From assembly GCA_004297735.1 (NCBI GenBank), contig SCTI01000001.1, forward strand, positions 51,467-115,466: DNA of 64,000 nt, written 5' to 3'. Under the pieces are notes generated by a model, which did not search any database, was not told the origin of the DNA, and saw only the letters and a program-made list of their open reading frames with translations. The DNA is from Patescibacteria group bacterium. GTDB taxonomy: Bacteria; Patescibacteriota; Saccharimonadia; UBA4664; SCTI01. How positions within the stretch are numbered: the stretch's first letter is position 1; every line of letters begins with the position of its first letter. The translations under genes were made by a program, and so were the position numbers. Below are positions 3,987-26,793 of the stretch, piece by piece.

Positions 3987-5744
3987 ATGCTCACCTATCT
4001 CAAGTTTAAATGGCAACGAGTGGCTCGTAGGTGGTGGCGCAACGGCTTAAAGTCGATCACCACCGGTCGGGCCTACCTGCGATATCGAGTGTGGGGACGC
4101 TGGCAGCAGCTAGCCATGATTCGCCGCTTTGTGGTGGTTTGGTGGGCGATAGTTTTGGTTTGCGGCGTGGGTCTGTTGTGGCAGACGCGTCACGTGGTGG
4201 CCGAAAGCGCGGTGTTAAAGCCGTTAGCCGGCGGACGCTATACCGAGGCGGTGTTTGGGGATATGACAACAATCAATCCGATTCTGCCAACCACTAGCGC
4301 TGGGTCTGATGCCAGTCGCTTGGTGTTTAACGGCTTGACCGCTTTTAACACGCAGGGGGAGCTTAAGGGTGACTTAGCCGAACGCTGGGATGTTAGCCCG
4401 GACGGCAAAACCTATACCTTCCACTTACGCCAGGGCGTAACTTGGCACGATGGGGTGCCGTTTACATCGCAAGATGTGTTGTTTACACTAACCGCGATTC
4501 AGAACCCCGATACGCGTTCGCCGCTGGCCCCAACCTGGAAGGGTGTTACCGCCGAGGCGCCCGATGATCAAACGGTGGTGTTTAAGCTGCCCAAGCCGTA
4601 TACGCCTTTTGTTAACGCTACTACCGTTGGTATTTTGCCGCGGCATAGCTTGGAGCGGACCGAACCGCGGCTGCTGCGAATCAGTGATTTTAATCAGCAC
4701 CCAATCGGAACCGGTCCGTACCGAGTCCGCCAGCTGTATGCCGAGCGAGGAGAGCTAGAGCTGCAGGCTAATGGTGATTACTTTAAGGGTCAGCCCTACA
4801 TCCAAGCCATAGTCCTGCGTAGCTATGAGAGTTCTGATGATGCGCTCCAGGCCTACCGCCGCCGTCAGGTTATGGGCATTGCTCAGCTGCGCCCCGGACA
4901 GGTGTCAGAGGCCGCCGAAACAGGTACGCTTAAGCTGCACGAAGCCGGTGTTCCCGACAGAGTGGGAGTCTTCTTTAAAACTAAAAGCGGTATTACGTCA
5001 GATAAGGCGGTGAGAGCGGCATTAGCGCTGGCTACCGACCGGGGAGAGATCGTTAAGAACGAGTTTGACGGCTACGCCAGTACGGCTAGCAGCCCTTTAA
5101 TTGCTCCTAAAATGAGCTCGGTTGGCTTGGCTCAGCCTTCTCGCACCAATATTGAGGCGGCCAAAGCCAGTTTAGAGGCGGCCGGCTGGAAGGTTGGTGC
5201 CGATGGTGTAAGAACCAAAAACGGTCAGCCTTTGACGCTTAAGCTGGTTACTCAGTCACAAACCGCCTATGGCGCGGTAGCTCATCGGCTGCAAGAGCAG
5301 TGGCGGGCGGCAGGAGTAAAGCTGGAGGTAGAGGAGGTGTCGGCCGAAACCCTGCAACAAAGCCATATCCGCCCGCGCAACTACGATGTTTTACTCTACG
5401 CCATTAATCTTGGTGCCGACCCCGATGTTTATGCTTTTTGGCACAGCTCGCAGGCGGCTGACCCGGGCCTCAACCTGTCGACCTACAATTCGAAAACCGC
5501 CGATGCGGCCCTGGAGGCCGGCCGGATCGTGCGCGACGGCCCAACCCGCGCGGCCAAATACCGCAACTTTATTCAAGCTTGGGTCCAAGACACGCCGGCG
5601 ATTATGCTGTACACGCCTACATACATATACGCGGTTGATCGGGAGGTTAGGGGGATCGACATCAAGCGATTGGTCTACCCGTCGGATCGGTTTGACCAAG
5701 TTGAGCGGTGGTCGGTTCGGGTTCAGCCGGTCGCAGCCCGTTAG
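3987..5744 (+). CDS. ABC transporter substrate-binding protein, family 5 (peptide/nickel type), N-terminally membrane-anchored
   Basis: 585 aa with a DppA/OppA-like SBP_bac_5 architecture. Single N-terminal TM. Confidence 0.8.
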   Translation: MLTYLKFKWQRVARRWWRNGLKSITTGRAYLRYRVWGRWQQLAMIRRFVVVWWAIVLVCGVGLLWQTRHVVAESAVLKPLAGGRYTEAVFGDMTTINPILPTTSAGSDASRLVFNGLTAFNTQGELKGDLAERWDVSPDGKTYTFHLRQGVTWHDGVPFTSQDVLFTLTAIQNPDTRSPLAPTWKGVTAEAPDDQTVVFKLPKPYTPFVNATTVGILPRHSLERTEPRLLRISDFNQHPIGTGPYRVRQLYAERGELELQANGDYFKGQPYIQAIVLRSYESSDDALQAYRRRQVMGIAQLRPGQVSEAAETGTLKLHEAGVPDRVGVFFKTKSGITSDKAVRAALALATDRGEIVKNEFDGYASTASSPLIAPKMSSVGLAQPSRTNIEAAKASLEAAGWKVGADGVRTKNGQPLTLKLVTQSQTAYGAVAHRLQEQWRAAGVKLEVEEVSAETLQQSHIRPRNYDVLLYAINLGADPDVYAFWHSSQAADPGLNLSTYNSKTADAALEAGRIVRDGPTRAAKYRNFIQAWVQDTPAIMLYTPTYIYAVDREVRGIDIKRLVYPSDRFDQVERWSVRVQPVAAR

Positions 5745-5936: not shown

Positions 5937-6641
5937 ATGCTAAGAAAACAAAATGGGTTTACGGCCGTAGAAGGCGTCTTAGTAGTGTTGCTAATTGTAG
6001 CGATCGGCGCCGCCGGCTACTTTGCTTACCAAGTCAGAACTCAATCATCCGATCCAACCAGCCAGTCGCAGCCAAAAGCTAAAGCGGCACCCAAGGTCGA
6101 GCTAACGACTTATAGCTCAAAAACAATGCCTGGTGTCAGCTTTCAATATCCGCAAAACTGGAAGGTTGAGGAGAAAGTTGCCGGCGACCCAGGGAATGAG
6201 GGTGATGTTCCGTCTGCCGAAAAACTTACTCTAAGTAGTCCATCAGGAGCGGTTAAACTTACTTGGACTTCTGGGCTTGTTGGTATCGGCGGAGCTTGTA
6301 ATGATGGCTCCTATCCCGGTGATGATTTAGCTCTGTGCACCCTATATGAAGTTATTAACAGCCATAAGCTAAAAAATGCCAACCTATACTCTGTATCAGG
6401 TGTTTACACGCAGGTTGGCGATAGCCCGACGGCCTACCTGGCCATACAGGCAAGTGATGGCGTCATTAAGACGCGCCGCAGCTTTTCGGGCGAGTTAGTT
6501 AGCGGCGGCGAGGCGGGGGCTTACATGCTGGTAGTGTCACCTGTAGCAAAGTCTGCTACCAAGGCCGAGGCAGAGGCTGCACTCAAGAGTAGCGACATGG
6601 TTACCGGCCAAGCCATTATCGATTCATTTACTAAAAAGTAA
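5937..6641 (+). CDS. type IV pilin-like protein (class III signal peptide)
   Basis: N-terminus MLRKQNG|FTAVEG with a G at the prepilin cleavage site, F+1 and E+5, followed by a hydrophobic helix. Confidence 0.55.
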   Translation: MLRKQNGFTAVEGVLVVLLIVAIGAAGYFAYQVRTQSSDPTSQSQPKAKAAPKVELTTYSSKTMPGVSFQYPQNWKVEEKVAGDPGNEGDVPSAEKLTLSSPSGAVKLTWTSGLVGIGGACNDGSYPGDDLALCTLYEVINSHKLKNANLYSVSGVYTQVGDSPTAYLAIQASDGVIKTRRSFSGELVSGGEAGAYMLVVSPVAKSATKAEAEAALKSSDMVTGQAIIDSFTKK

Positions 6642-6733: not shown

Positions 6734-9076
6734 ATGCCCAAAAAATCAACAGGACTACTTAGAAGACGGCGATTTCGCAAGCGTGATCTGTTGTTCGTGG
6801 CGGCATTATTTTCGCTGGTTGGCATGCTGGCAATTATTAGCACCTTTGCAGCCACCTTTACTACGGTTGAGGCCGGCACTCTAAAGTACAACAAAGTAGC
6901 TAATATTGCTGGTCAAAACGGCGGCAGAGCGGCAGCCATGTACTGGGGCGCTACCGGCACCGGCAATGTTAGTTTGCCCACCAAAACTACCAGTGTAACG
7001 GTTTACGCTCGCGGCGATCAGTGTCAGGGCGCTCCGCAGATGACGTTAACGATTGACGGTCAACAGGTGGCTAACCAGGCGGTTACCGCCACCGGGTGGA
7101 AGGCTTACACCGTACCGGTAAATATTGAGGCCGGCAGTCATGCGCTAGCGGTTGGGTTTACCAATGATGCGGTGGTGGCAAATGGCAACAAAAACAACGT
7201 CACGACCTACTGCGATCGTAACCTGTACGTTGACCGTTTAGTATTTACCGGCCTGGACAAGCCGGCCACCTTAAGCACCAATGTAGAGGCGGAAATAATG
7301 AGCTCAAACTTGAGTCAGGTGGTAGATGGCTCGGTTAAGGACGGTAAGGCTCGAGCCTTTTACCAAAACGCGACTGCCAGTACCGGTGTGATACTGCCAA
7401 ACGCGGTCAACCAGATCAAGCTGGTAGCTAAGGGTGATCAGTGCCAGGGCGCACCAAACGTAAAGGTGACGGTTGATGGTAAGTCGGTGGTTAGTCGAGC
7501 CGTTACGGGGCGAAACTGGGGTGAGTATGTCTCGACGGTTAACATTCCAGCCGGTAGCCACAAGGTTGGCATTGAGTTTACCAATGATGTTTATATTGCC
7601 GCCACGCGCTGTGATCGCAACCTGTACGTTGACCGCTTGGTACTAACCGGACCGGCACCGGCACCAAAACCTCCAGTGGCTCAACCAGCCGCTAGTAAGC
7701 CGCCGACACCAACGGTGCCAACCACTCCAGCCGCTCAATCGGTAGCAACCTACAGCCCAACGGCACCGTATACCATCATCATGATTGGTTGGCGGCCGTA
7801 CGAAAAAGAGTATGCCCAGCTGGCGAATACCAAGACCAACTTGGTTTATCGATCGATTGAACGTACACCAAACGGCCAAGGCAAGTGGCCCAAGCTGGAT
7901 CAGTGGGAGGCAGCCAACTACCGTTACTACAACAATGTGGCTGGATCCGACTGGGCTTCGAGCGGGGCCGGTGGTGCCTGTAAGAACATCAACCTGGCCT
8001 ACATGGACCAGCGTTACAGCGACGAGTTGCTCCAGCGTAAAGGCAATATTGGCTACTATATGCACGAGATGGTGGCGCTGAATGCGGCTTGTAACGGCTG
8101 GAACTGGACGGCGGCGGCTCAATCAATCGACTGGGCCAGGATTAACAACTGGATGCTGCAAGCTAAGGCGCAAAACAAAAAGGTGATATGGTCGGAGCCG
8201 GCTCAGGGCTGGAACGCCATCCGCTCAAACCCGACCTTCCAGGCGGTAGCGCCGTACTGGAAAGAGTCAATGGTGCCAATGTTTGCCACCAACTTCCGCA
8301 CCCCATCTTTCAATCATGTGCCATACGCTCGCGATGGAGCCACGGCGGTGGCGCGACAGTTTGGCACCCCAGTAGGTGAAAGCGTGCAGTCCTGGTACTT
8401 CCGTGAAGGCTACAACGACTTAACCACCAGTGCTACGGTCGGCTTGGCCAACTACGGGCTAGAGGTTGGTTCAACCTATTACCAAATTGAAGGTACCTAT
8501 GGCGATATGGCTTGGGGCACCGACTACATGAAGGGCATTCTGGCCTTTAGCAAAACATTAGGTCCGGCCGGCAGCCCGGTGCCTGCTCCCGTGGTGGTTG
8601 TGCCTCCGGTGGCGGCGTCGCAGTCAACCGTCGCTAAAAAGCCGCTCTACCAGCTTTGGAACAACGTTACTTCGGACCACATGTACACCACTAGCGAGAC
8701 CGAAAAGAATCAACTTATTGCCACTAAAGGTTACGTCGACCAAGGTATCGCCGGGTACGTTTACGAAAAATCGGTACCAGGCAGCGTACCGCTATATCGC
8801 CTTTATTCGGCTAATTTAACCGATCACTTTTACACCAACAGCGAAACCCAGCGCAGCCAGGCTAAAGCCGGCGGCGGCCGGTATGTCGATGAGGGTATAA
8901 CCGGGTACGTTATGACCAGCCAGGTATCTGGTACCACACCACTGTACCAACTTTATAGCGGCGGGTATCCGGATCACTTTTACACCACTCAAACCTGGTC
9001 GCGTGATAGCGCCAAAGCCTCGTTCCGCAAGTATGTTGAGCAGGGCAATGCCGGCTACGTCTTTGTTAAACCCTAG
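6734..9076 (+). CDS. large secreted multidomain protein: two duplicated beta-sandwich (CBM-like) modules, a Pro-rich linker, a central domain and three C-terminal DUF5648-like repeats
   Basis: An internal module of about 130 aa containing CDRNLYVDRLV is duplicated. Linker PAPAPKPP. Three repeats of PLYxLYS...DHFYTTS...GYV. Signal anchor at the N-terminus. Confidence 0.7.
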   Translation: MPKKSTGLLRRRRFRKRDLLFVAALFSLVGMLAIISTFAATFTTVEAGTLKYNKVANIAGQNGGRAAAMYWGATGTGNVSLPTKTTSVTVYARGDQCQGAPQMTLTIDGQQVANQAVTATGWKAYTVPVNIEAGSHALAVGFTNDAVVANGNKNNVTTYCDRNLYVDRLVFTGLDKPATLSTNVEAEIMSSNLSQVVDGSVKDGKARAFYQNATASTGVILPNAVNQIKLVAKGDQCQGAPNVKVTVDGKSVVSRAVTGRNWGEYVSTVNIPAGSHKVGIEFTNDVYIAATRCDRNLYVDRLVLTGPAPAPKPPVAQPAASKPPTPTVPTTPAAQSVATYSPTAPYTIIMIGWRPYEKEYAQLANTKTNLVYRSIERTPNGQGKWPKLDQWEAANYRYYNNVAGSDWASSGAGGACKNINLAYMDQRYSDELLQRKGNIGYYMHEMVALNAACNGWNWTAAAQSIDWARINNWMLQAKAQNKKVIWSEPAQGWNAIRSNPTFQAVAPYWKESMVPMFATNFRTPSFNHVPYARDGATAVARQFGTPVGESVQSWYFREGYNDLTTSATVGLANYGLEVGSTYYQIEGTYGDMAWGTDYMKGILAFSKTLGPAGSPVPAPVVVVPPVAASQSTVAKKPLYQLWNNVTSDHMYTTSETEKNQLIATKGYVDQGIAGYVYEKSVPGSVPLYRLYSANLTDHFYTNSETQRSQAKAGGGRYVDEGITGYVMTSQVSGTTPLYQLYSGGYPDHFYTTQTWSRDSAKASFRKYVEQGNAGYVFVKP

Positions 9077-19046: not shown

Positions 19047-19190
19047 GTTACATAATAGCATAAGTAGTATAAAAAGTCAATAGTACCTTGAATATTATGA
19101 TCTGTTGAGGCATTAATGCCATCTGGAATTGTAAAAACTGATCTGAAGTCGTATACTGGGCCCACGTTCCAGATACGAAAGGACGTTGAC

Positions 19191-19997
19191 ATGAGTCAGC
19201 AGAAGACCAGCCGTCTGATCATTCAGGGTCAGCCGGATGACATTCGTCGTCGGTATCACCTCGATATCGACTTCCCGTTCGGCCACATCAACTTGAGCCC
19301 AGGGAAGCCAGACTCCGGCGGGTTGGTCCACTTCACCTACGGCTCCTTCGTTGGCTACTGGGCCAGTGCTTACCCAAGTCATTCCCAGATTCCGGGTCGC
19401 TTGCATCACATCATCAGCCAGATCGCTCGGGCCAGGTGGAGCAGCAACCTGCCGCTAGCTGGTGGGATTGCGGTACGTACCAATCACATGCGCGTGTTCA
19501 TCAACAAGCGCATTCCCGCTAATAAGCGCCGCTCCGCTCTCCACCATCTCGACAATGTTGTCATCAAGGCGCTCGGCGCAGATCTGCGGCCGGATTACGA
19601 CAGCGGGCAGATGTGGTACAACGACCCAGGGCCTCAGGTCGATGTGGTTCGCCCGGACTGGCAAGCTGGGGTTAACGTGTCCGATCCGGAAGGGGATCGT
19701 CGGATCAGGCTTGACCCTGACGTCAACTGGAAGACCTTCAGCGGCGAGCGTTTCGTCAACGTCAAGGAGCAGTTCTCGATCCATCGGATCCGTAGCTGGC
19801 CGAAGGAACAGATTGAGCTTCTGCATACGCTGTTCTGGTCGCAGGGGAGCGAGTCGTGCGACATCTTTCCTCCGCTCACTGGCAGCGGCATGGAGTTGAC
19901 GTTGCGCAAGGGCTTGGCCTGGACGTGGGCGGACGTCAACCGCGAGTGGACCAATCGGTTCGCCACCGGCGTTGACCTGCGCGCCCTCGCGGCTTAG
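19191..19997 (+). CDS. hypothetical protein on a GC-rich islet (268 aa)
   Basis: ORF 19116-19997. I chose the internal ATG (MSQQKTSRL...) after an AAAGGA RBS. Confidence 0.5.
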   Translation: MSQQKTSRLIIQGQPDDIRRRYHLDIDFPFGHINLSPGKPDSGGLVHFTYGSFVGYWASAYPSHSQIPGRLHHIISQIARARWSSNLPLAGGIAVRTNHMRVFINKRIPANKRRSALHHLDNVVIKALGADLRPDYDSGQMWYNDPGPQVDVVRPDWQAGVNVSDPEGDRRIRLDPDVNWKTFSGERFVNVKEQFSIHRIRSWPKEQIELLHTLFWSQGSESCDIFPPLTGSGMELTLRKGLAWTWADVNREWTNRFATGVDLRALAA

Positions 19998-20723: not shown

Positions 20724-21326
20724 TTAAAACGACCCTGTTTCTACCTTACCAGCCCGCTTGTAATTGGCAAAAATTACACCTTTGGGCGAGATCTTGGAAT
20801 CGGTCAGCTTAAACGCCGCCGGCATGGTGCCCTCGGCAAATAAACGCTTGCCTTCACCAAGGGTAATGGGGAAGACCTTGAGCCAGAACTCATCTACCAG
20901 GTCGTGTTTCAATAACGTCTGAATCATGTTCCCGCTACCGTGAACCTGCAGTACCGGTCCATTGCTCTGCTTCAGCTTCTTAAGCTTAGCAACCACATCG
21001 CCAGCAACCAGCACCGAGTTTTCCCATTCCAGTTTGGGCTTAGAAGCTGATAGTACGTACTTGGTCGCCTTATTAAAGGGCGCACCCAGCGTGTCCGGAC
21101 CCTGCTTCGGCCAATAATTGGCAAAAATATCGTAGGTCTTCCGGCCAAGCAGTAGATCATACGATCCATTCATTTGCTGGCTCATAACCTCACCAGAAAA
21201 ATCGTCCCAGTATGGAACAGTCCAGCCACCATACTTAAAGCCGCCACTGGTATCTTCGTCTGGCCCGCCCGGTGCCTGCATAACCCCGTCGAGGCTAAGA
21301 AAGGTGAGTACAATAATCTTTCTCAT
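20724..21326 (-). CDS. dihydrofolate reductase family protein (RibD C-terminal domain, YwjB-like)
   Basis: MRKIIVLTFLSLDGVMQAPGGPDED...VHGSGNMIQTLL pattern. GGAAGGAG RBS. Confidence 0.8.
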   Translation of the reverse strand: MRKIIVLTFLSLDGVMQAPGGPDEDTSGGFKYGGWTVPYWDDFSGEVMSQQMNGSYDLLLGRKTYDIFANYWPKQGPDTLGAPFNKATKYVLSASKPKLEWENSVLVAGDVVAKLKKLKQSNGPVLQVHGSGNMIQTLLKHDLVDEFWLKVFPITLGEGKRLFAEGTMPAAFKLTDSKISPKGVIFANYKRAGKVETGSF

Positions 21327-21330
21327 ATAC

Positions 21331-21753
21331 TTACTCCTTCCATAATATCTTGCTGATAGGCCCGTTTTTAGACAGTAACTTAATATGGTCATACGACTGC
21401 TGCAAAATCTGCTCTAAGATTGGCAGCTCTACATCGCTCAGCTGCTTAATGTACAAACAGTACCCAGTAGAGGCATGCTTACCGAGCTTAGCCAGTAATT
21501 CGGAGTAGCGAGCAGTTCCGTCCATAAGGTAAACTGTAATCTTATTTTTTCTGGGGTAGAAGCCAATGACCAAGCCGTCACCTTCGCGCCCGCTGTCGTA
21601 CTTGTAATGATAGGTATCAAACCCGAGCGTGCCGGCATTCCATAGCTTAGGCTCATGTCCACTTATCCGTTGCATCATATCAGCTAGAACCGCGGAATCT
21701 TTGGCGGTCTGCTCATTAAGCGCCGCGAAGTACTTTTCGACTTTATCCTTCAA
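21331..21753 (-). CDS. DUF1801 (YdhG-like) domain protein
   Basis: KLWNAGTLGFDTYHYKYDSGREGD core resembles DUF1801. Assigned by recollection only. Confidence 0.45.
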   Translation of the reverse strand: MKDKVEKYFAALNEQTAKDSAVLADMMQRISGHEPKLWNAGTLGFDTYHYKYDSGREGDGLVIGFYPRKNKITVYLMDGTARYSELLAKLGKHASTGYCLYIKQLSDVELPILEQILQQSYDHIKLLSKNGPISKILWKE

Positions 21754-22123
21754 CTGCTACCTCAAACCCTCCATATGCCATTTTCTTCATATCAACCGGC
21801 ATGGAAAAATCGTTTTGTTCTTTATATTTTTCGCTCATTTCTTCCATTGCCTTTTTGTTTACTTCGTCGCGGTGCTCCTTGGAGTTGAAAACAATAAAAG
21901 AGAACCATACATTTTCATCATCACCGGCGTCGGCCATGTCGGCAAAAGCGCGTGATTTTTCGTCACCCACCACTTGCTGCTTGAGGTCATCACCGCGACA
22001 CTCAAAATACTGAAGCGCACCATGCTTCATCCAAGCGTCACGCCCATCCTCGGCCATTTTCTCATACTCTGTTTCTTTGCCCTTAGGCACTACCAGTACA
22101 AAACCATCAACATATTTAGCCAT
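21743..22123 (-). CDS. DUF1428 family protein
   Basis: N-terminus YVDGFVLVVPKGKETEY...HGALQYFECRGDD matches the DUF1428 (YbaA-like) pattern. Confidence 0.65.
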   Translation of the reverse strand: MAKYVDGFVLVVPKGKETEYEKMAEDGRDAWMKHGALQYFECRGDDLKQQVVGDEKSRAFADMADAGDDENVWFSFIVFNSKEHRDEVNKKAMEEMSEKYKEQNDFSMPVDMKKMAYGGFEVAVEG

Positions 22124-22213
22124 CCCCACACTCCTTTTTTATAAAGTGACCTTCTTAAATAAGTTTAACATTTACTCCATATACTTTGCATATTGGAGGT
22201 AAACAAAAAGAGT

Positions 22214-22239
22214 ACCGAAGTGCTCGATAATTCCTGGTG
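22214..22239. repeat. left copy of a 26-bp imperfect direct repeat (ACCGAAG-N6-ATAATTCCTGGTG) bounding the AT-rich islet
   Basis: 21 of 26 nt identical to 23993-24018. The last 13 nt are identical to the tRNA-Gly 3' trailer. Confidence 0.6.
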
Positions 22240-22371
22240 TTAGCGACTCAGTAAGCGAGGCGTCATTGCCTTTGGCTGAAGTTTATTTTGAGTAGCTGTG
22301 TTCGTGGGCCAATTGTACGCCCGTGACAATCGTGTTGTGCATGGAGGTAAAAATTAACAAAATATTTCAGC

Positions 22372-23448
22372 TTATGCTTGTGCTGGTCCTCTCCATCGAT
22401 AAGCTCGTCTAAATCCAGCATCCTCAGCCTCCTTAACCGTCTTGGCATAGAATTCACCTCGTTTTGGGGTGATTTTTGCCTTGTCATATTGTTGGTCAAA
22501 CGGCAAGTGGTATATCTTGTCTCGCTTATTAGATATATTGCACTTGATGCAGGGGTAGTTCTTGTTCATTTTAAAGTTTTCTTTTAATTCAATTTTTAGC
22601 TCTTTTGCAAATCTTTTTGCTAAATCCGATAGTGTTGTCGATGTTGCGAAAACAGCTTTAACGGACCTGCCCTTATTTGCATCTCGATACTGGAAAACTG
22701 TGCCAAAAAACTGAAATATATGCTTTTCATAAATGACTTTGAATTTTGACCAATTCTTGCATTGTACGACTACTATTTCATTTTCCTTGCTTGCAATAAT
22801 ATCCCTGCCCAAATCTTCCAGCCCCTTGAATATGCCGACATATTCAACCTCATATCCTTTAGATTCGTAAGTATAGCCTACGTATCTTTCATACATCTTC
22901 CCGATTTGCCATTTGCTTTTTGGCCTGCTCCAATATCTATCAAGAGCCAATTGATTCCTCTCCGTGGTGCTTAGTTTTCTGTACTCCTTTTTTGAAACAT
23001 AATTAGTAACCTTATCTTCCAGCTCCTCCTCGCTGTAGTCCGCAAGAATCCTCCTATCTTCTTCGGATATATTGTCAACCTCTTCCTTGAGGTCGATAAG
23101 AAAAGGGGCAACACTTTCATAGTACGCAACAAGGTACTCAAGAATCTTTTTGTCTGAGATTGCCCTTCTCCTTTCCCGCGCCATATTTGCGACTACCTCG
23201 CTTGCCCGAACTGCGGGTACGTGCTTGTATTTTAAGAAGTCAACCAAATTTTGATCTTGAAGTTGCTGGTAATACTCAAATGCACTTGCTAAAGTAGGAA
23301 AACCAATCTGCCTCTCCTTTATAATTTGCTCTAAGTCTTTCTTTTGGTCTCGGATATGCTCTAAGTATTCTTGTGCTTGTTCGCGAACTTCATGCCATTC
23401 ACTTATTGTCTGCTGCAATTCTGCCCGTACATCTTCGTAGTACCCCAT
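22372..23448 (-). CDS. coiled-coil protein with a C-terminal Mrr-like PD-(D/E)xK restriction-endonuclease domain
   Basis: The N-terminal 170 aa or so are heptad-rich. C-terminal GYEVEYVGIFKGLEDLGRDIIASKENEIVVVQCKNWSK is an Mrr_cat-type D...D-x-K/QCK core. AT-rich codon usage. Confidence 0.7.
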   Translation of the reverse strand: MGYYEDVRAELQQTISEWHEVREQAQEYLEHIRDQKKDLEQIIKERQIGFPTLASAFEYYQQLQDQNLVDFLKYKHVPAVRASEVVANMARERRRAISDKKILEYLVAYYESVAPFLIDLKEEVDNISEEDRRILADYSEEELEDKVTNYVSKKEYRKLSTTERNQLALDRYWSRPKSKWQIGKMYERYVGYTYESKGYEVEYVGIFKGLEDLGRDIIASKENEIVVVQCKNWSKFKVIYEKHIFQFFGTVFQYRDANKGRSVKAVFATSTTLSDLAKRFAKELKIELKENFKMNKNYPCIKCNISNKRDKIYHLPFDQQYDKAKITPKRGEFYAKTVKEAEDAGFRRAYRWRGPAQA

Positions 23449-23903
23449 TATTTATATGCCTTTTCGAAATCTTCAATAAATAAGTCATTATAATAGGCTT
23501 TAATGTCCTTTTTAGCAGTAACGTTTACCCATTCCTTGTCTCTGGTGCATGAGCAATTAGGGTATCTGTTGCAACCCAAGAATTCACCATACATCCCGTC
23601 CCTTTTAACCATATAGCCTGTCTTACATTCAGGACAACTCCTATTTATCCTATGTATGCTTTTAGCAATTTTGGCTTCCTCGTATTCGTACGAATTTACA
23701 TATTCGTCACGCATTGATTCAATCTCTTTTTTAAGCTCCGCTAGAGATGTTGATGAAATGAAATTAGTTTTCAATAACTCTCTAGTAAGAAGTGACTTCT
23801 TTTTTTCATGGCGCCTTTTAGCATACTCGTCGAATAAGTCTATTAGCCAGCCTATTATTGTTAGGATTAGGAAAATACCTATAAGTATGATAAAAGGCTC
23901 CAT
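23448..23903 (-). CDS. membrane-anchored protein with a C-terminal topoisomerase-type C4 zinc ribbon
   Basis: Start at MEPFIIL with GGAGG 7 nt upstream. One TM helix. CPECKTGYMVKRDGMYGEFLGCNRYPNC is a zf-C4_Topoisom pattern. The stop overlaps the start of the downstream nuclease gene (TAATG). Confidence 0.65.
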   Translation of the reverse strand: MEPFIILIGIFLILTIIGWLIDLFDEYAKRRHEKKKSLLTRELLKTNFISSTSLAELKKEIESMRDEYVNSYEYEEAKIAKSIHRINRSCPECKTGYMVKRDGMYGEFLGCNRYPNCSCTRDKEWVNVTAKKDIKAYYNDLFIEDFEKAYK

Positions 23904-23992
23904 ACCGCTTCCTCCAAGATAAATATACCACTGTATCACGCTTTAAAGTTGGTTTTTAAGCAAGATTAACCGGTGGAATACTAGATGTAATC

Positions 23993-24018
23993 ACCGAAGC
24001 GTCAAATAATTCCTGGTG
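23993..24018. repeat. right copy of the 26-bp direct repeat, overlapping the 3' end of tRNA-Gly
   Basis: See 22214-22239. Confidence 0.6.
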
Positions 24019-24089
24019 CGGGTACAGGGACTCTAACCCTGGGCCTCTTCCTTGGCAAGGAAGCGCTCTAACAGCTGAGCTACACCCGC
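24014..24089 (-). tRNA. tRNA-Gly(GCC)
   Basis: Revcomp GCGGGTG TA GCTC AGCTGTTA GAGC G CTTCC TTGCCAA GGAAG AGGCC CAGGG TTAGAGT CCCTG TACCCGC A CCA. Confidence 0.85.
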
Positions 24090-24235: not shown

Positions 24236-24637
24236 CTAGCTAACCTTAACGCCGCAGTGCTTACAGCGCTTAGCTTTGGCTGGGATCATACTCAGGCATT
24301 CGGGGCACTCTTTTTCGCCCGTACCGACCTCCTGGCCGCGCTTGGCTCGGTTGATTAGGTGATTCATTGGCTTAACCACGCCAAAAAAGATAACAGCGGC
24401 AATTATAAGGAAGGCGATGAGGGCGTTGAGGAACTTGCCGTACATGATGGCGCTGCCGTTAATGGTGAGCTTGAGGGCGGAGAAGTCGGGTTGGCCGCCA
24501 ACCGCGGCGATCAGCGGGGTGATGACGTCTTCGACCAGGCTGGTCACGATGGTGCCAAAGGCGGCACCAATAACGACACCGACGGCTAGGTCGACCACGT
24601 TGCCACGGAGTAAGAACTGTTTGAACTCTTTAAGCAT
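24236..24637 (-). CDS. mscL: large-conductance mechanosensitive channel MscL with a C-terminal Cys4 zinc-ribbon extension
   Basis: MLKEFKQFLLRGNVVDLAVGVVIGAAFG is the canonical MscL N-terminus. C-terminus ...CPEC...CKHCG. Confidence 0.8.
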   Translation of the reverse strand: MLKEFKQFLLRGNVVDLAVGVVIGAAFGTIVTSLVEDVITPLIAAVGGQPDFSALKLTINGSAIMYGKFLNALIAFLIIAAVIFFGVVKPMNHLINRAKRGQEVGTGEKECPECLSMIPAKAKRCKHCGVKVS

Positions 24638-24664
24638 GAGTTTAGTATAGCGCAAAATAAGGAC

Positions 24665-24853: not shown

Positions 24854-25258
24854 TTAGGCGGCGACGAGTTCGGCCTCGAGCTTCTTGTTGCGGGGAGGGT
24901 GGGCCGCGGTGATCAGCTTGCGGAACATCTGTTCGATGCTACGCCGGTTGCTGGTGTCGCTGCAGCGGTCGAAGAGATCGGCGGTCATCAGGAACTGGGG
25001 GCGGTTACCCCGGTGTAGACGCACCGGCATGCCGTCGGCGCGAGTCAGGGTGCCAGAGACGAGAATTTCGTCACCTGGCACTCCCACAATGATGCGGCCA
25101 GTCCCTCGGCCCGCGATTTCGAAAACGAAGCTGACTTGGTTGTCGGTACCGCTCGCTTCATCTGGCTTGATCTCCGTCTGGAGATCCTCGGCGGCCAGAA
25201 TGGCCAGCCGGATGAGGCGTTCGCTACGGGTTTCTGCTTTGCTCGTCGGTGTGGGCAT
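24854..25258 (-). CDS. hypothetical protein on a GC-rich islet (134 aa)
   Basis: Start MPTPTSK with an AGGAGG RBS 5 nt upstream. GC-rich. Confidence 0.5.
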   Translation of the reverse strand: MPTPTSKAETRSERLIRLAILAAEDLQTEIKPDEASGTDNQVSFVFEIAGRGTGRIIVGVPGDEILVSGTLTRADGMPVRLHRGNRPQFLMTADLFDRCSDTSNRRSIEQMFRKLITAAHPPRNKKLEAELVAA

Positions 25259-25388
25259 GTTGCCTCCTGGCGAGTTGGGAACAGTATCTGTATAATGACA
25301 TATTGACTCAAATTGCGCAAGTCGATTTGGGGTTGCTGACAACAGGTTAGAACCCATGTATAATTTGGGAGTTCCTCGAAAAGCTTAT

Positions 25389-25598: not shown

Positions 25599-25653
25599 TA
25601 TTAAGGTAGAGCTACTTCTAACATTCTAGGTGAGAGAAAGTTGGTGGAGCACA
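25599..25653 (+). repeat. copy 1 of a perfect 55-bp direct repeat (TATTAAGGTAGAGCTACTTCTAACATTCTAGGTGAGAGAAAGTTGGTGGAGCACA) ending at the start codon of ORF 25653
   Basis: Identical to 27485-27539. Contains a putative promoter and RBS (GGTGGAG). Confidence 0.9.
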
Positions 25654-26210
25654 TGAGCTACCGGCTCACGGAAGATCAGTGGCGCATTGTGCTGCTGATT
25701 TGGGATCGCAAAAAGAAGGGTCGGCATCCAGCGCAACCCTTTGACTTGGCCGCCCAGCTTGGCCTGAGCCGAATGAGCGTGTTACGCGATCTTGGATATC
25801 TGGTAAGTCTCGAAATCGTAAAACAAGATGTCGGCTATCAGTGTCACCCAGCAAAGCGTTGGCCTTCCGAAGAGATGTTGTGCCTCATGGAGGCTTGGCG
25901 AGTTGGAGTGAGCATTGACGAACAGGGCGAGGCCGACGTGGTCGCGGTGTATCTCACACAGCAAAATCAACTTCGGTTTCAAAATGGGCAAAAAATGTTT
26001 CGAGGATTTGTCGCTCAAGCTATAGGCGAAACTAAACGGGCTGAAAATCCACTCGAACATCTTGTCCAGCAGGCGGCCATTCAGCCATCATGCCCGGCTG
26101 ACATTGTTCGTCGAGCAGCTTACCAGGCGGCGATTGAGTACTGGCAGATTAGGCCGCTGCCTAATGGCACGGTTTTTGACAGCGCGGAAGGTGGAGCACA
26201 TGGCGTTTAA
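25653..26210 (+). CDS. winged-helix DNA-binding protein (hypothetical, GC-rich islet)
   Basis: FDLAAQLGLSRMSVLRDLGYLVSLEIV HTH-like segment. Start ATG immediately after the 55-bp repeat. Confidence 0.5.
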   Translation: MSYRLTEDQWRIVLLIWDRKKKGRHPAQPFDLAAQLGLSRMSVLRDLGYLVSLEIVKQDVGYQCHPAKRWPSEEMLCLMEAWRVGVSIDEQGEADVVAVYLTQQNQLRFQNGQKMFRGFVAQAIGETKRAENPLEHLVQQAAIQPSCPADIVRRAAYQAAIEYWQIRPLPNGTVFDSAEGGAHGV

Positions 26211-26793
26211 GCTGAATAAGGGTTACGAAGCAATCCTGGTAGCGATAGATCAGCAGCGCCGACCACTAAGCTTAAAAGAGCTTGAACTGCTGACAAACTT
26301 AAAGCCTCAGTCTCTCAGGGCGTACTGCAAGAAGCTGGTTAGAGAGAAGTACCTGGTGTATAACCACGCAACCCTTCGCTACTCAGAGGGTGAGCTCTTT
26401 CCACCCGTTATCAAGATGGAAAAAATAACGAAGCGGTTGGAGGCTTGGCGGGAGCAGGACCCCAGCTTCCATCCCGTAGCCTTTGAGCTGATGTTCAAGC
26501 ACGGTGGTGGATACGACTACGACTTGCGTCAGGATTTTCTGCGGCGACTGCGCGAACTGCTGCGTCCAGCGGAGGTGGCCGGATATGAGCCTGATTCGCT
26601 AGGCGAACCGCTCGTGCCGGCAGGCTGCAGTCCAGAGACCGAGCTGGTTTACCGGCGCGCTCACGAAGTGGTAAGCGATTGGCTGAGTCAGCGAATTGAC
26701 GTGGGTTCCGGGTTAGATCATGACCCCGGGCCGGAAGACGCGCCGCTGCGTGACGACGAGCCATGGTTCCCGGTTCCGCTGGAAGAAGAGTGA
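26200..26793 (+). CDS. winged-helix (MarR-like) hypothetical protein with an acidic C-terminal tail
   Basis: Start context GGTGGAGCACATG shared with the repeat genes. LSLKELELLTNLKPQSLRAYCKKLVREKYLV. Confidence 0.45.
   Translation: MAFKLNKGYEAILVAIDQQRRPLSLKELELLTNLKPQSLRAYCKKLVREKYLVYNHATLRYSEGELFPPVIKMEKITKRLEAWREQDPSFHPVAFELMFKHGGGYDYDLRQDFLRRLRELLRPAEVAGYEPDSLGEPLVPAGCSPETELVYRRAHEVVSDWLSQRIDVGSGLDHDPGPEDAPLRDDEPWFPVPLEEE

Follow-up and report, generated by a model that had tools for sequence, protein, structure and literature searches.

The segment at positions 22240–23992 (about 1.75 kb) of a 64,000-nucleotide (nt) stretch of contig SCTI01000001.1, called the window below, is on balance probably a horizontally acquired cassette of two genes, here named A and B, which would encode a split, membrane-tethered Mrr-type nuclease serving as an entry-point defence. 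In this genome, which is of the Saccharimonadia type (Patescibacteria), the cassette appears to have integrated in the terminator region that directly follows tRNA-Gly(GCC) on its 3' side. Direct observations concern its composition, the flanking repeats, the gene pair, its domains and catalytic residues, the split and fused architectures of its relatives, their mobility contexts and the variability of the locus.

Between the repeats the GC content is 0.391, the lowest among 32 two-kilobase bins; the window as a whole has 0.518. GC content at third codon positions (GC3) is 0.37 in gene A and 0.42 in gene B compared to 0.71 in mscL, and this sharp drop is confined to A and B. The tRNA-Gly(GCC) is the final member of an array with the order tRNA-Val, mscL, tRNA-Phe and tRNA-Gly, tRNA-Phe and tRNA-Val being located upstream. 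The segment is bounded by a 26-nt direct repeat with an identity of 21/26. Read on the gene strand, the repeat consists of a perfect 13-nt core (CACCAGGAATTAT), six divergent nucleotides and a perfect 7-nt block, CTTCGGT. The core contains the terminal CACCA of the tRNA, and its second copy lies 1.78 kb away, exactly at the far edge of the low-GC block. When the 2 kb to the left were shuffled 300 times with preservation of dinucleotides, none of the shuffles reached 21/26 and the best gave 19. The initial annotation of this DNA, made from its letters alone, had described an AT-rich islet with these 26-bp repeats, the right copy of which overlaps the last five nucleotides of tRNA-Gly (CACCA), enclosing only two genes coupled through TAATG. 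All of this holds up, except that its estimate of 36–38% GC was slightly low.

The two copies of the repeat differ in what surrounds them. The right copy retains only half of a hairpin (GACGCTTCGG), is not followed by a T-run and is closest to the single-copy site (allele) of a relative, L085. Its divergent hexamer, TTGACG, forms the −35-like element of a promoter-like site. The left copy together with the next 13 nt makes up the terminator-like hairpin and T-run of the tRNA operon, and the layout of the left flank (CACCA-GGAATTAT-C-GAGCAC-TTCG-GTACTC-TTTTTGTTT) reproduces the native layout of relatives. Judged from this layout, the terminator-like flank appears to be native to tRNA-Gly and to be displaced now by 1.78 kb from the tRNA.

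Relatives of the site were found through MscL (76–89% identity). Four of them (L085, L086, L089 and L092) keep tRNA-Phe and tRNA-Gly and contain one copy of the repeat flank each, compared to two in the window. Directly after tRNA-Gly all four have a short spacer, a hairpin and TTTTTCTTT, that is, a terminator; in three of them the spacer reads GGAATTAT or ...GAATTAT. What stands behind the terminator of tRNA-Gly(GCC) varies among these relatives. The gene after the terminator in L085 (2158–3227) has a SIR2_2 domain (E 1e-10), a metal-resistance cluster (CsoR-like, DUF305 and P-type ATPase) occupies 6519–11318 in L089, a glyoxalase gene is present at 6518–7092 in L092 and another unrelated gene at 2660–3047 in L086.

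Two routes of integration fit the junctions. Site-specific recombination at the 13-nt core would make the repeats an attL/attR pair, and its recombinase would have disappeared afterwards or be supplied in trans. Insertion with duplication of a target of about 26 nt would leave them as a target duplication.

Genes A and B overlap by one nucleotide in TAATG, which indicates translational coupling, and neither a methyltransferase nor a recombinase gene is present inside the segment. Protein A has a single transmembrane (TM) helix followed by DLFDEYAKRRHEKKK, a basic helical linker, a topoisomerase-type C4 zinc ribbon (Pfam Zn_ribbon_Top1) and a tail of 30 amino acids (aa). Among 35 homologues of A, lysine and arginine residues within 15 residues of the TM helix number 153 after it versus 13 before it. 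By the positive-inside rule, therefore, the ribbon is predicted to be cytoplasmic (N-out/C-in).

Protein B matches Mrr_cat (PF04471) with 43.6 bits (cutoff 21, E 3.6e-11), and the same domain is matched by 51 of 53 diverse relatives. The catalytic motif of Mrr is E...D...(E/Q)xK. In alignments of 21, 53 and 119 members E187, D216 and K231 are invariant and Q229 occurs in at least 90% of the sequences, so that the active site of B (E...D...QxK) appears to be intact. The zinc ribbon of A and the PD-(D/E)xK nuclease of B, both proposed in the initial annotation, are thus recovered by profile search. Its N-terminal coiled coil of about 170 aa in B is not; this part instead consists of a variable helix and, after it, a helical region (residues ~40–180) that is highly conserved and specific to the family rather than a generic coiled coil. 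A search of 1.84 billion representative proteins with this region alone retrieved 612 clusters, in which about 180 residues follow it; this C-terminal part matched Mrr_cat in the ten long members scanned. Residues 301–349 match the NCBIfam 'sunset' domain with 25.4 bits, just under the cutoff of 27.

An AlphaFold2 model of B from 119 sequences has a mean predicted local distance difference test (pLDDT) score of 72.9 with a well predicted nuclease core, the N-terminal half being poor in a model from 21 sequences. The core shows the restriction-endonuclease-like alpha/beta fold, is Mrr-like and has MspJI as its best Foldseek match, with AspBHI also listed. Fold matches for the N-terminal helical hairpin were uninformative, and a sequence search of the PDB with the family profile returned only insignificant matches to TBC1D7. 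Pfam annotates no N-terminal domain in B or the 53 relatives, and DUF4041 was matched neither by B at E ≤ 0.1 nor by the relatives at E ≤ 0.01. A reader of modified bases (SRA, EVE/YTH or the N-terminal winged helix of Mrr) was not detected in A, B or the 53 relatives with Pfam, NCBIfam or PADLOC, although the unannotated middle domain could hide one.

The family of B comprises more than 6,300 clusters at 90% identity. Full-length members with 60–73% identity occur across several classes of the Candidate Phyla Radiation (CPR), and further hosts belong to Bacteroidota, Chloroflexota, Clostridia, Planctomycetota, Actinomycetota and two archaea. Relatives of B are patchily distributed, 355 out of some 185,000 species genomes containing them. 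They are also present on four Hymenobacter plasmids and on 121 viral contigs of IMG/VR, and prophages and plasmids of cultivable bacteria carry the family as well (for example, Flagellimonas lutimaris and Hymenobacter).

We compared the architectures at 80 genome loci, of which 77 are complete and three incomplete. A separate A-like gene abuts B in 34/80, the distance usually being −4 to +6 nt, and the C4 ribbon is present in 30 of these 34 A-like proteins and missing from the other four. In 39/80 one or two TM helices are fused to the N-terminus of B and the ribbon is absent, while 4/80 have neither an A-like gene nor a fused TM helix. Either way, a membrane anchor is found in 73 of the 77 complete loci. 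TM-fused forms also make up 70 of the 80 viral contigs examined, and 22 of these 80 contigs carry a recombinase within 1.5 kb. Some longer relatives have the layout TM helix, coiled coil, SWIM zinc finger, middle domain and Mrr. Among P0484, P0492, P0498, P0457, P0408, P0383 and P0409 are long members in which the SWIM finger stands between the TM helix or coiled coil and the middle domain, one with a KTSC domain and two with a duplicated middle domain; others have several TM helices.

The TM–B fusions argue that A and B work as one unit. Since the fused loci lack the ribbon, the conserved feature is membrane tethering and the zinc finger is optional. The initial annotation had proposed a split sensor-effector system. 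The conserved, coupled pair stands and recurs elsewhere, but what is conserved in A is the anchor and not the ribbon, and 'membrane-tethered nuclease' or 'anchor plus nuclease' appears from these architectures to fit better than 'DNA sensor plus effector'. As to the suggestion that the system is undescribed, PADLOC-DB v2 models gave nothing for A or B at E ≤ 1, and the 53 relatives gave only weak, generic matches (coiled-coil models and, in 7/53, mREase_IV). Literature searches on Mrr_cat and Patescibacteria, on the 'sunset domain' and on Mrr with TM helices, zinc ribbons or anti-phage activity found no description of the family. Databases, however, already hold thousands of members, annotated by NCBI as 'restriction endonuclease'. 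The catalytic domain is therefore known (Mrr_cat), and what seems to be new is the mobile, membrane-tethered Mrr architecture and its split form with a zinc-ribbon anchor.

Experimental precedent for each step of the action proposed here is available from SNIPE of E. coli, in which a TM helix and a DUF4041 middle domain are combined with a GIY-YIG nuclease (Nature 2026, PMC13190303). The tether of SNIPE prevents self-cleavage, since the form without its TM helix is toxic and cuts host DNA, whereas intact SNIPE cleaves the DNA of the phage as it is being injected (PMC13190303). On this pattern, A would fix B to the cytoplasmic side of the membrane, the role that a fused TM helix presumably plays in about half of the relatives. 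The tether would keep a nuclease that is sequence-unspecific, and would otherwise be harmful, off the nucleoid and the chromosome and would place it where phage, plasmid or transforming DNA enters, so that B could cut the incoming DNA there. This would give entry-point immunity or superinfection exclusion. The incoming DNA, a partner protein or the injection machinery may be engaged by the middle domain and by the zinc finger, which is a Top1 ribbon here and SWIM in the long fused relatives. Expression of A and B might depend on read-through from the tRNA operon or on a promoter at the junction, and would end at the displaced tRNA terminator. We infer in this proposal the interaction of A with B, their localisation at the membrane, DNA as the substrate and the defence itself. 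Defence against phage or plasmid is the most likely role of the cassette. A housekeeping role, in repair or in scavenging DNA after uptake, was considered and set aside in view of the patchy spread, the foreign composition and the carriage on prophages and plasmids.

Gene neighbourhoods show that the relatives are mobile. A large serine recombinase is present in 14/80 genome loci (directly downstream in L002, L010, L024, L037 and L073) and a tyrosine recombinase in 9/80, directly downstream in six; the pair stands beside a large serine recombinase in L177, L002 and L024. In a Saccharimonadales relative (67% identical) the order is AAA_15/21 ATPase, A, B and a resolvase-type recombinase of 572 aa. 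Helix-turn-helix (HTH) proteins of the XRE type occur in 9/80 loci, in several of them directly upstream of A. Scanning the gene next to the module on either side in related loci (147 proteins) returned the Pfam domains HTH_3, Phage_integrase, Resolvase, DUF4238, Peptidase_S24, GIY-YIG, Fic, AAA_21 and DpnI, and PADLOC models for SoFic, AriA of PARIS, PtuA, PDC candidates and the reverse transcriptases of retrons and DRT systems. An AbiEii-type ATPase and XRE and S24 regulators are further neighbours of a defence context. Among the viral members, frequent adjacency to a prophage integrase fits superinfection exclusion. By these scans the family is mobile, patchy and often found near recombinases or defence genes. 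The lack of an integrase, although correctly noted for the segment in the initial annotation, is particular to this copy, since close relatives carry a serine recombinase. Likewise, integration at the 3' end of a tRNA gene describes the window copy, with the insertion lying in the terminator region, but only about 8/80 related loci lie just downstream of a tRNA; tRNA linkage is a property of this copy and not a hallmark of the family. In one related locus, L014 (5126–6004), from a metagenome-assembled genome (MAG) of Moraniibacteriota, the pair is located downstream of a tRNA array that also ends with tRNA-Gly(GCC), and a 102-aa remnant of a large serine recombinase lies between the tRNA and gene A.

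Direct repeats flank a minority of the related loci. Repeats with at least 18 identical bases were found at 6/65 loci versus 2/196 shifted controls. A perfect 90-nt repeat (90/90; 5362–5451 and 7656–7745) encloses A, B and an additional 161-aa open reading frame (ORF) in L011, a 108/120 repeat surrounds the TM-fused gene of L049, and further duplications are present in L075 (59) and L016 (40). In L022 the insertion falls right at the beginning of mutM/fpg. The initial 20 nt of this gene (MPELPEV) are present twice (5518–5537 and 6961–6980), so that mutM has remained intact, and the locus is a clean case of insertion with duplication of the target. No convincing repeats were seen around L177, which bears a recombinase, or L178. 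The pair in L011, a Nealsonbacteria MAG, lies downstream of tRNA-Gln and dnaX, and its third ORF (7116–7601) is translationally coupled. This ORF has no Pfam or PHROG match, and similar downstream ORFs may be present in L015, L017 and L018.

Table 1. Positions in the window of the cassette, its flanks and the predicted parts of its two proteins.
Feature	Position	Strand	Basis or remark
tRNA-Gly(GCC)	24014..24089	-	ARAGORN and Rfam; same synteny in L085, L086, L089, L092
Right, tRNA-proximal repeat copy	23993..24018	.	minus-strand reading CACCAGGAATTAT-TTGACG-CTTCGGT; repeat search and alignment with relatives
Promoter-like site, TTGACG-16 nt-TAGTAT	23978..24005	-	consensus scan, 9/12 match; weak candidate
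Gene A	23448..23903	-	151 aa from ATG; GGAGG 7 nt upstream; same gene called in L001
A, predicted single-pass TM helix	residues ~3-23, nt 23835-23897	-	N-terminal hydrophobic helix
A, topoisomerase I-type C4 zinc ribbon	residues 88-121, nt 23541-23642	-	Pfam Zn_ribbon_Top1, E 5.6e-11
Gene B	22372..23448	-	358 aa
B, helical hairpin	residues 2-113	-	AlphaFold2 model
B, conserved family-specific middle region	residues ~40-180, nt 22909-23331	-	alignments
B, acidic linker	residues 119-150	-	AlphaFold2, low confidence
B, Mrr_cat nuclease	residues 184-288, nt 22585-22899	-	Pfam match
B, 'sunset'-like C-terminal domain	residues 301-349, nt 22402-22548	-	NCBIfam, sub-threshold
Non-coding 3' tail of the segment	22240..22371	-	no credible ORF, no recombinase remnant
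Left, distal repeat copy	22214..22239	.	minus-strand reading CACCAGGAATTAT-CGAGCA-CTTCGGT
Terminator-like hairpin GAGCAC-TTCG-GTACTC then TTTTTGTTT	22201..22225	-	sequence; predicted fold only modestly stable

Several observations weigh against an acquired, membrane-tethered defence cassette. Many Mrr_cat enzymes are soluble, modification-dependent restriction enzymes, and no characterised member or solved structure of the B family was found. The nuclease of SNIPE is of the GIY-YIG type, whereas that of B is a Mrr-type PD-(D/E)xK domain, and B has no similarity to DUF4041 or GIY-YIG. AlphaFold2 confidence is low for residues 119–150 of B. Most nearest neighbours in related loci are ordinary genes, and tblastn against GenBank phage genomes gave no match of the B family. 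With regard to the acquisition, tblastn with 11 serine and tyrosine recombinases from related loci found none in the whole 64-kb window. An empty site would join tRNA-Gly directly to ...CGAGCACTTCGGTACTCTTTTTG, and a circular form would join 22240 to 23992. A strict empty site, with the tRNA-Gly terminator followed by the gene for a DUF1428 protein of the left flank, was found in none of the MscL or DUF1428 relatives; the DUF1428 relatives have other upstream genes and lack the tRNA-Gly. Part of the repeat, CTTCGG, is a motif common in hairpin loops and could be partly convergent. A metagenome scan with the pattern GCACCAGGAATTATN{6,8}CTTCGG gave two hits, both without any tRNA, which were taken as chance.

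A different explanation is that the segment is not a discrete insertion at all, its repeat being formed by similar tRNA-terminator hairpins with a C-UUCG-G loop plus a chance match, and its low GC marking an old, variable accessory region. The CTTCGGT block is indeed such a loop motif and is present in L085 too, the left flank at 20–22 kb is also reduced in GC (0.477), and neither an empty site nor a recombinase was found. However, the 13-nt core with the CACCA of the tRNA recurs exactly at the far edge of the low-GC block, the observed identity was reached in 0/300 shuffles, GC3 falls for A and B only, and the four relatives have one flank copy and not two, all of which makes this explanation very improbable to us. 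Marginally harder still to credit is that B is a selfish, homing-like nuclease which promotes its own insertion with no benefit to the host. It would explain the locus-specific duplications: flanking repeats of 20–120 nt are enriched, the duplication in L022 precisely preserves mutM, and insertion of restriction genes, including Type IV, with long target duplication and no mobility gene is documented (PMC2853133). Yet such repeats occur at only about 9% of the loci, many copies are located on prophages or accompanied by a serine or tyrosine recombinase, and it is not obvious what part the conserved membrane anchor would play in homing. The cases of Kobayashi are read as a way in which defence genes move and not as what these genes are for.

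Two further explanations accept the insertion and concern what B does. B might be a conventional Type IV modification-dependent restriction enzyme which acts anywhere in the cytoplasm, A being accessory or regulatory and the anchoring incidental. The Mrr_cat match above the gathering score, the Foldseek matches to MspJI (the best) and AspBHI, the weak mREase_IV matches in 7 of the 53 diverse members, the absence of a linked methyltransferase and the NCBI name are in line with it, as are the XRE regulators upstream in several loci, which resemble the controller proteins of restriction-modification systems. However, no reader domain (SRA, EVE, YTH or the Mrr winged helix) was detected in A or B, and an anchor in 73/77 complete loci is foreign to known Type IV enzymes. 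We regard this explanation as unlikely, though still a serious one; it is also compatible with tethering, since a tethered nuclease could be modification-dependent as well. Less probable, in our estimate, is an abortive-infection or toxin-antitoxin-like arrangement, in which a toxic B is held by A or by the membrane and, when released upon infection or membrane perturbation, degrades the host chromosome and so kills the cell or stabilises a mobile element. The tight, translationally coupled operon and the presence of the module on prophages, plasmids and recombinase-bearing elements would suit such a toxin, and the high toxicity of SNIPE without its TM helix (PMC13190303) makes release from a tether physically plausible. 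On the other side, half of the family has its anchor joined covalently to the nuclease, so that release would require proteolysis; a recurring protease or antitoxin-like partner is absent, and A was never found apart from B in the loci examined.

Some features of the surroundings of the cassette are recorded here. The left flank (20724–22129, minus strand) contains RibD_C, DUF1801 and DUF1428 genes with a GC content of 0.44–0.49 (0.477 for the bin). The DUF1428 protein is 82–89% identical to proteins on many Saccharimonadales contigs, where it has different neighbours, and this block may be another movable accessory unit. MscL (24236–24655, minus strand) has a C-terminal CxxC...CxxC zinc-ribbon tail with Pfam matches to UPF0547 and DZR (residues ~115–135), and a fusion of MscL to a zinc ribbon is also flagged (PF10571) in several Saccharimonadia-type relatives. 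Sizeable ORFs without a Pfam match are located near the tRNA cluster at 19116–19997 (plus), 24854–25357 (minus) and 25641–26793 (plus); the last comprises two overlapping ORFs, which look like winged-helix or HTH proteins by eye. When A, B and the DUF1428 protein were looked up by exact sequence, only one contig came up, L001 (Logan SRR8426595, 3917 nt). This contig ends inside tRNA-Gly, at the boundary of the segment; the break could be due to differences between strains at the insertion, or to no more than the tRNA repeat.

Patescibacteria depend on DNA uptake. Very few defence systems are known in these bacteria (PMC12366544), and of the mobile nuclease families seen in them, that of B is among the more widespread. 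If the cassette acts at the membrane, the principle of SNIPE, in which self and non-self are distinguished through location instead of sequence or modification, would have arisen a second time on its own, built on another nuclease fold and divided between two subunits. The copies that are flanked by repeats and free of recombinases add cases to the poorly understood target-duplication route of restriction-gene mobility, and the terminator of tRNA-Gly emerges as a variable site which holds a SIR2-like gene in one relative. A wider proposal, which we put forward tentatively and are inclined to doubt, is that A and B with their fused relatives form a phylum-spanning and so far unrecognised class of entry-point immunity, whose finger and middle domain sense DNA, or the injection machinery of phages, during passage across the membrane. 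Such a class might be a main innate defence of the genome-reduced Patescibacteria, might provide superinfection exclusion to prophages of Firmicutes, and would be SNIPE's convergent counterpart with a PD-(D/E)xK nuclease, able to exist as two subunits as well.

Among known systems, SNIPE is the closest functional analogue. Both share a predicted layout of an N-out, single-pass TM helix, an elongated helical middle part and a cytoplasmic C-terminal nuclease. In both, the N-terminal region is highly variable, with 0, 1 or 2 TM helices in some homologues, and both are carried on mobile elements. A DivIC/FtsB-like match occurs in one relative of B and in SNIPE homologues. The TM helix is predicted to be provided in trans by A in the window, and to be fused in 39/80 genome and 70/80 viral loci. 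Unlike SNIPE, the system described here has its anchor on a separate zinc-ribbon subunit, and B adds a 'sunset'-like domain. The likeness of B to SNIPE is one of architecture only, an analogy and not homology. With the Type IV enzymes Mrr, MspJI and AspBHI (PF04471), B shares a homologous catalytic domain, its motif and fold, and a stand-alone existence without a methyltransferase; it differs in that no reader domain was found, in its family-specific helical N-terminal and middle domain, and in being anchored in cis or in trans, here with a zinc-ribbon partner.

In its mobility the cassette resembles two known patterns. Restriction genes, including those of Type IV, have been reported to move by 'insertion with long target duplication' without a mobility gene (Nobusato, Furuta and Kobayashi, PMC2853133). 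Common to those cases and ours are a nuclease cassette, the absence of a mobility gene and direct repeats of host sequence, which measure 20–120 nt in the related loci. The repeat of the window, however, at 26 nt with 21/26 identity and a divergent centre, is below the 30-bp criterion of that study (PMC2853133), which the repeats of L011, L049, L075 and L016 exceed, and it looks equally like an attL/attR pair at the 13-nt core. The tRNA-linked integrative islands, which serine or tyrosine recombinases mobilise, share with the cassette foreign composition, direct repeats, cargo of a defence type and a site at the 3' end of a tRNA. In contrast to such islands, the cassette has no recombinase, its repeat includes only five nucleotides of the tRNA, and the whole element measures 1.75 kb.

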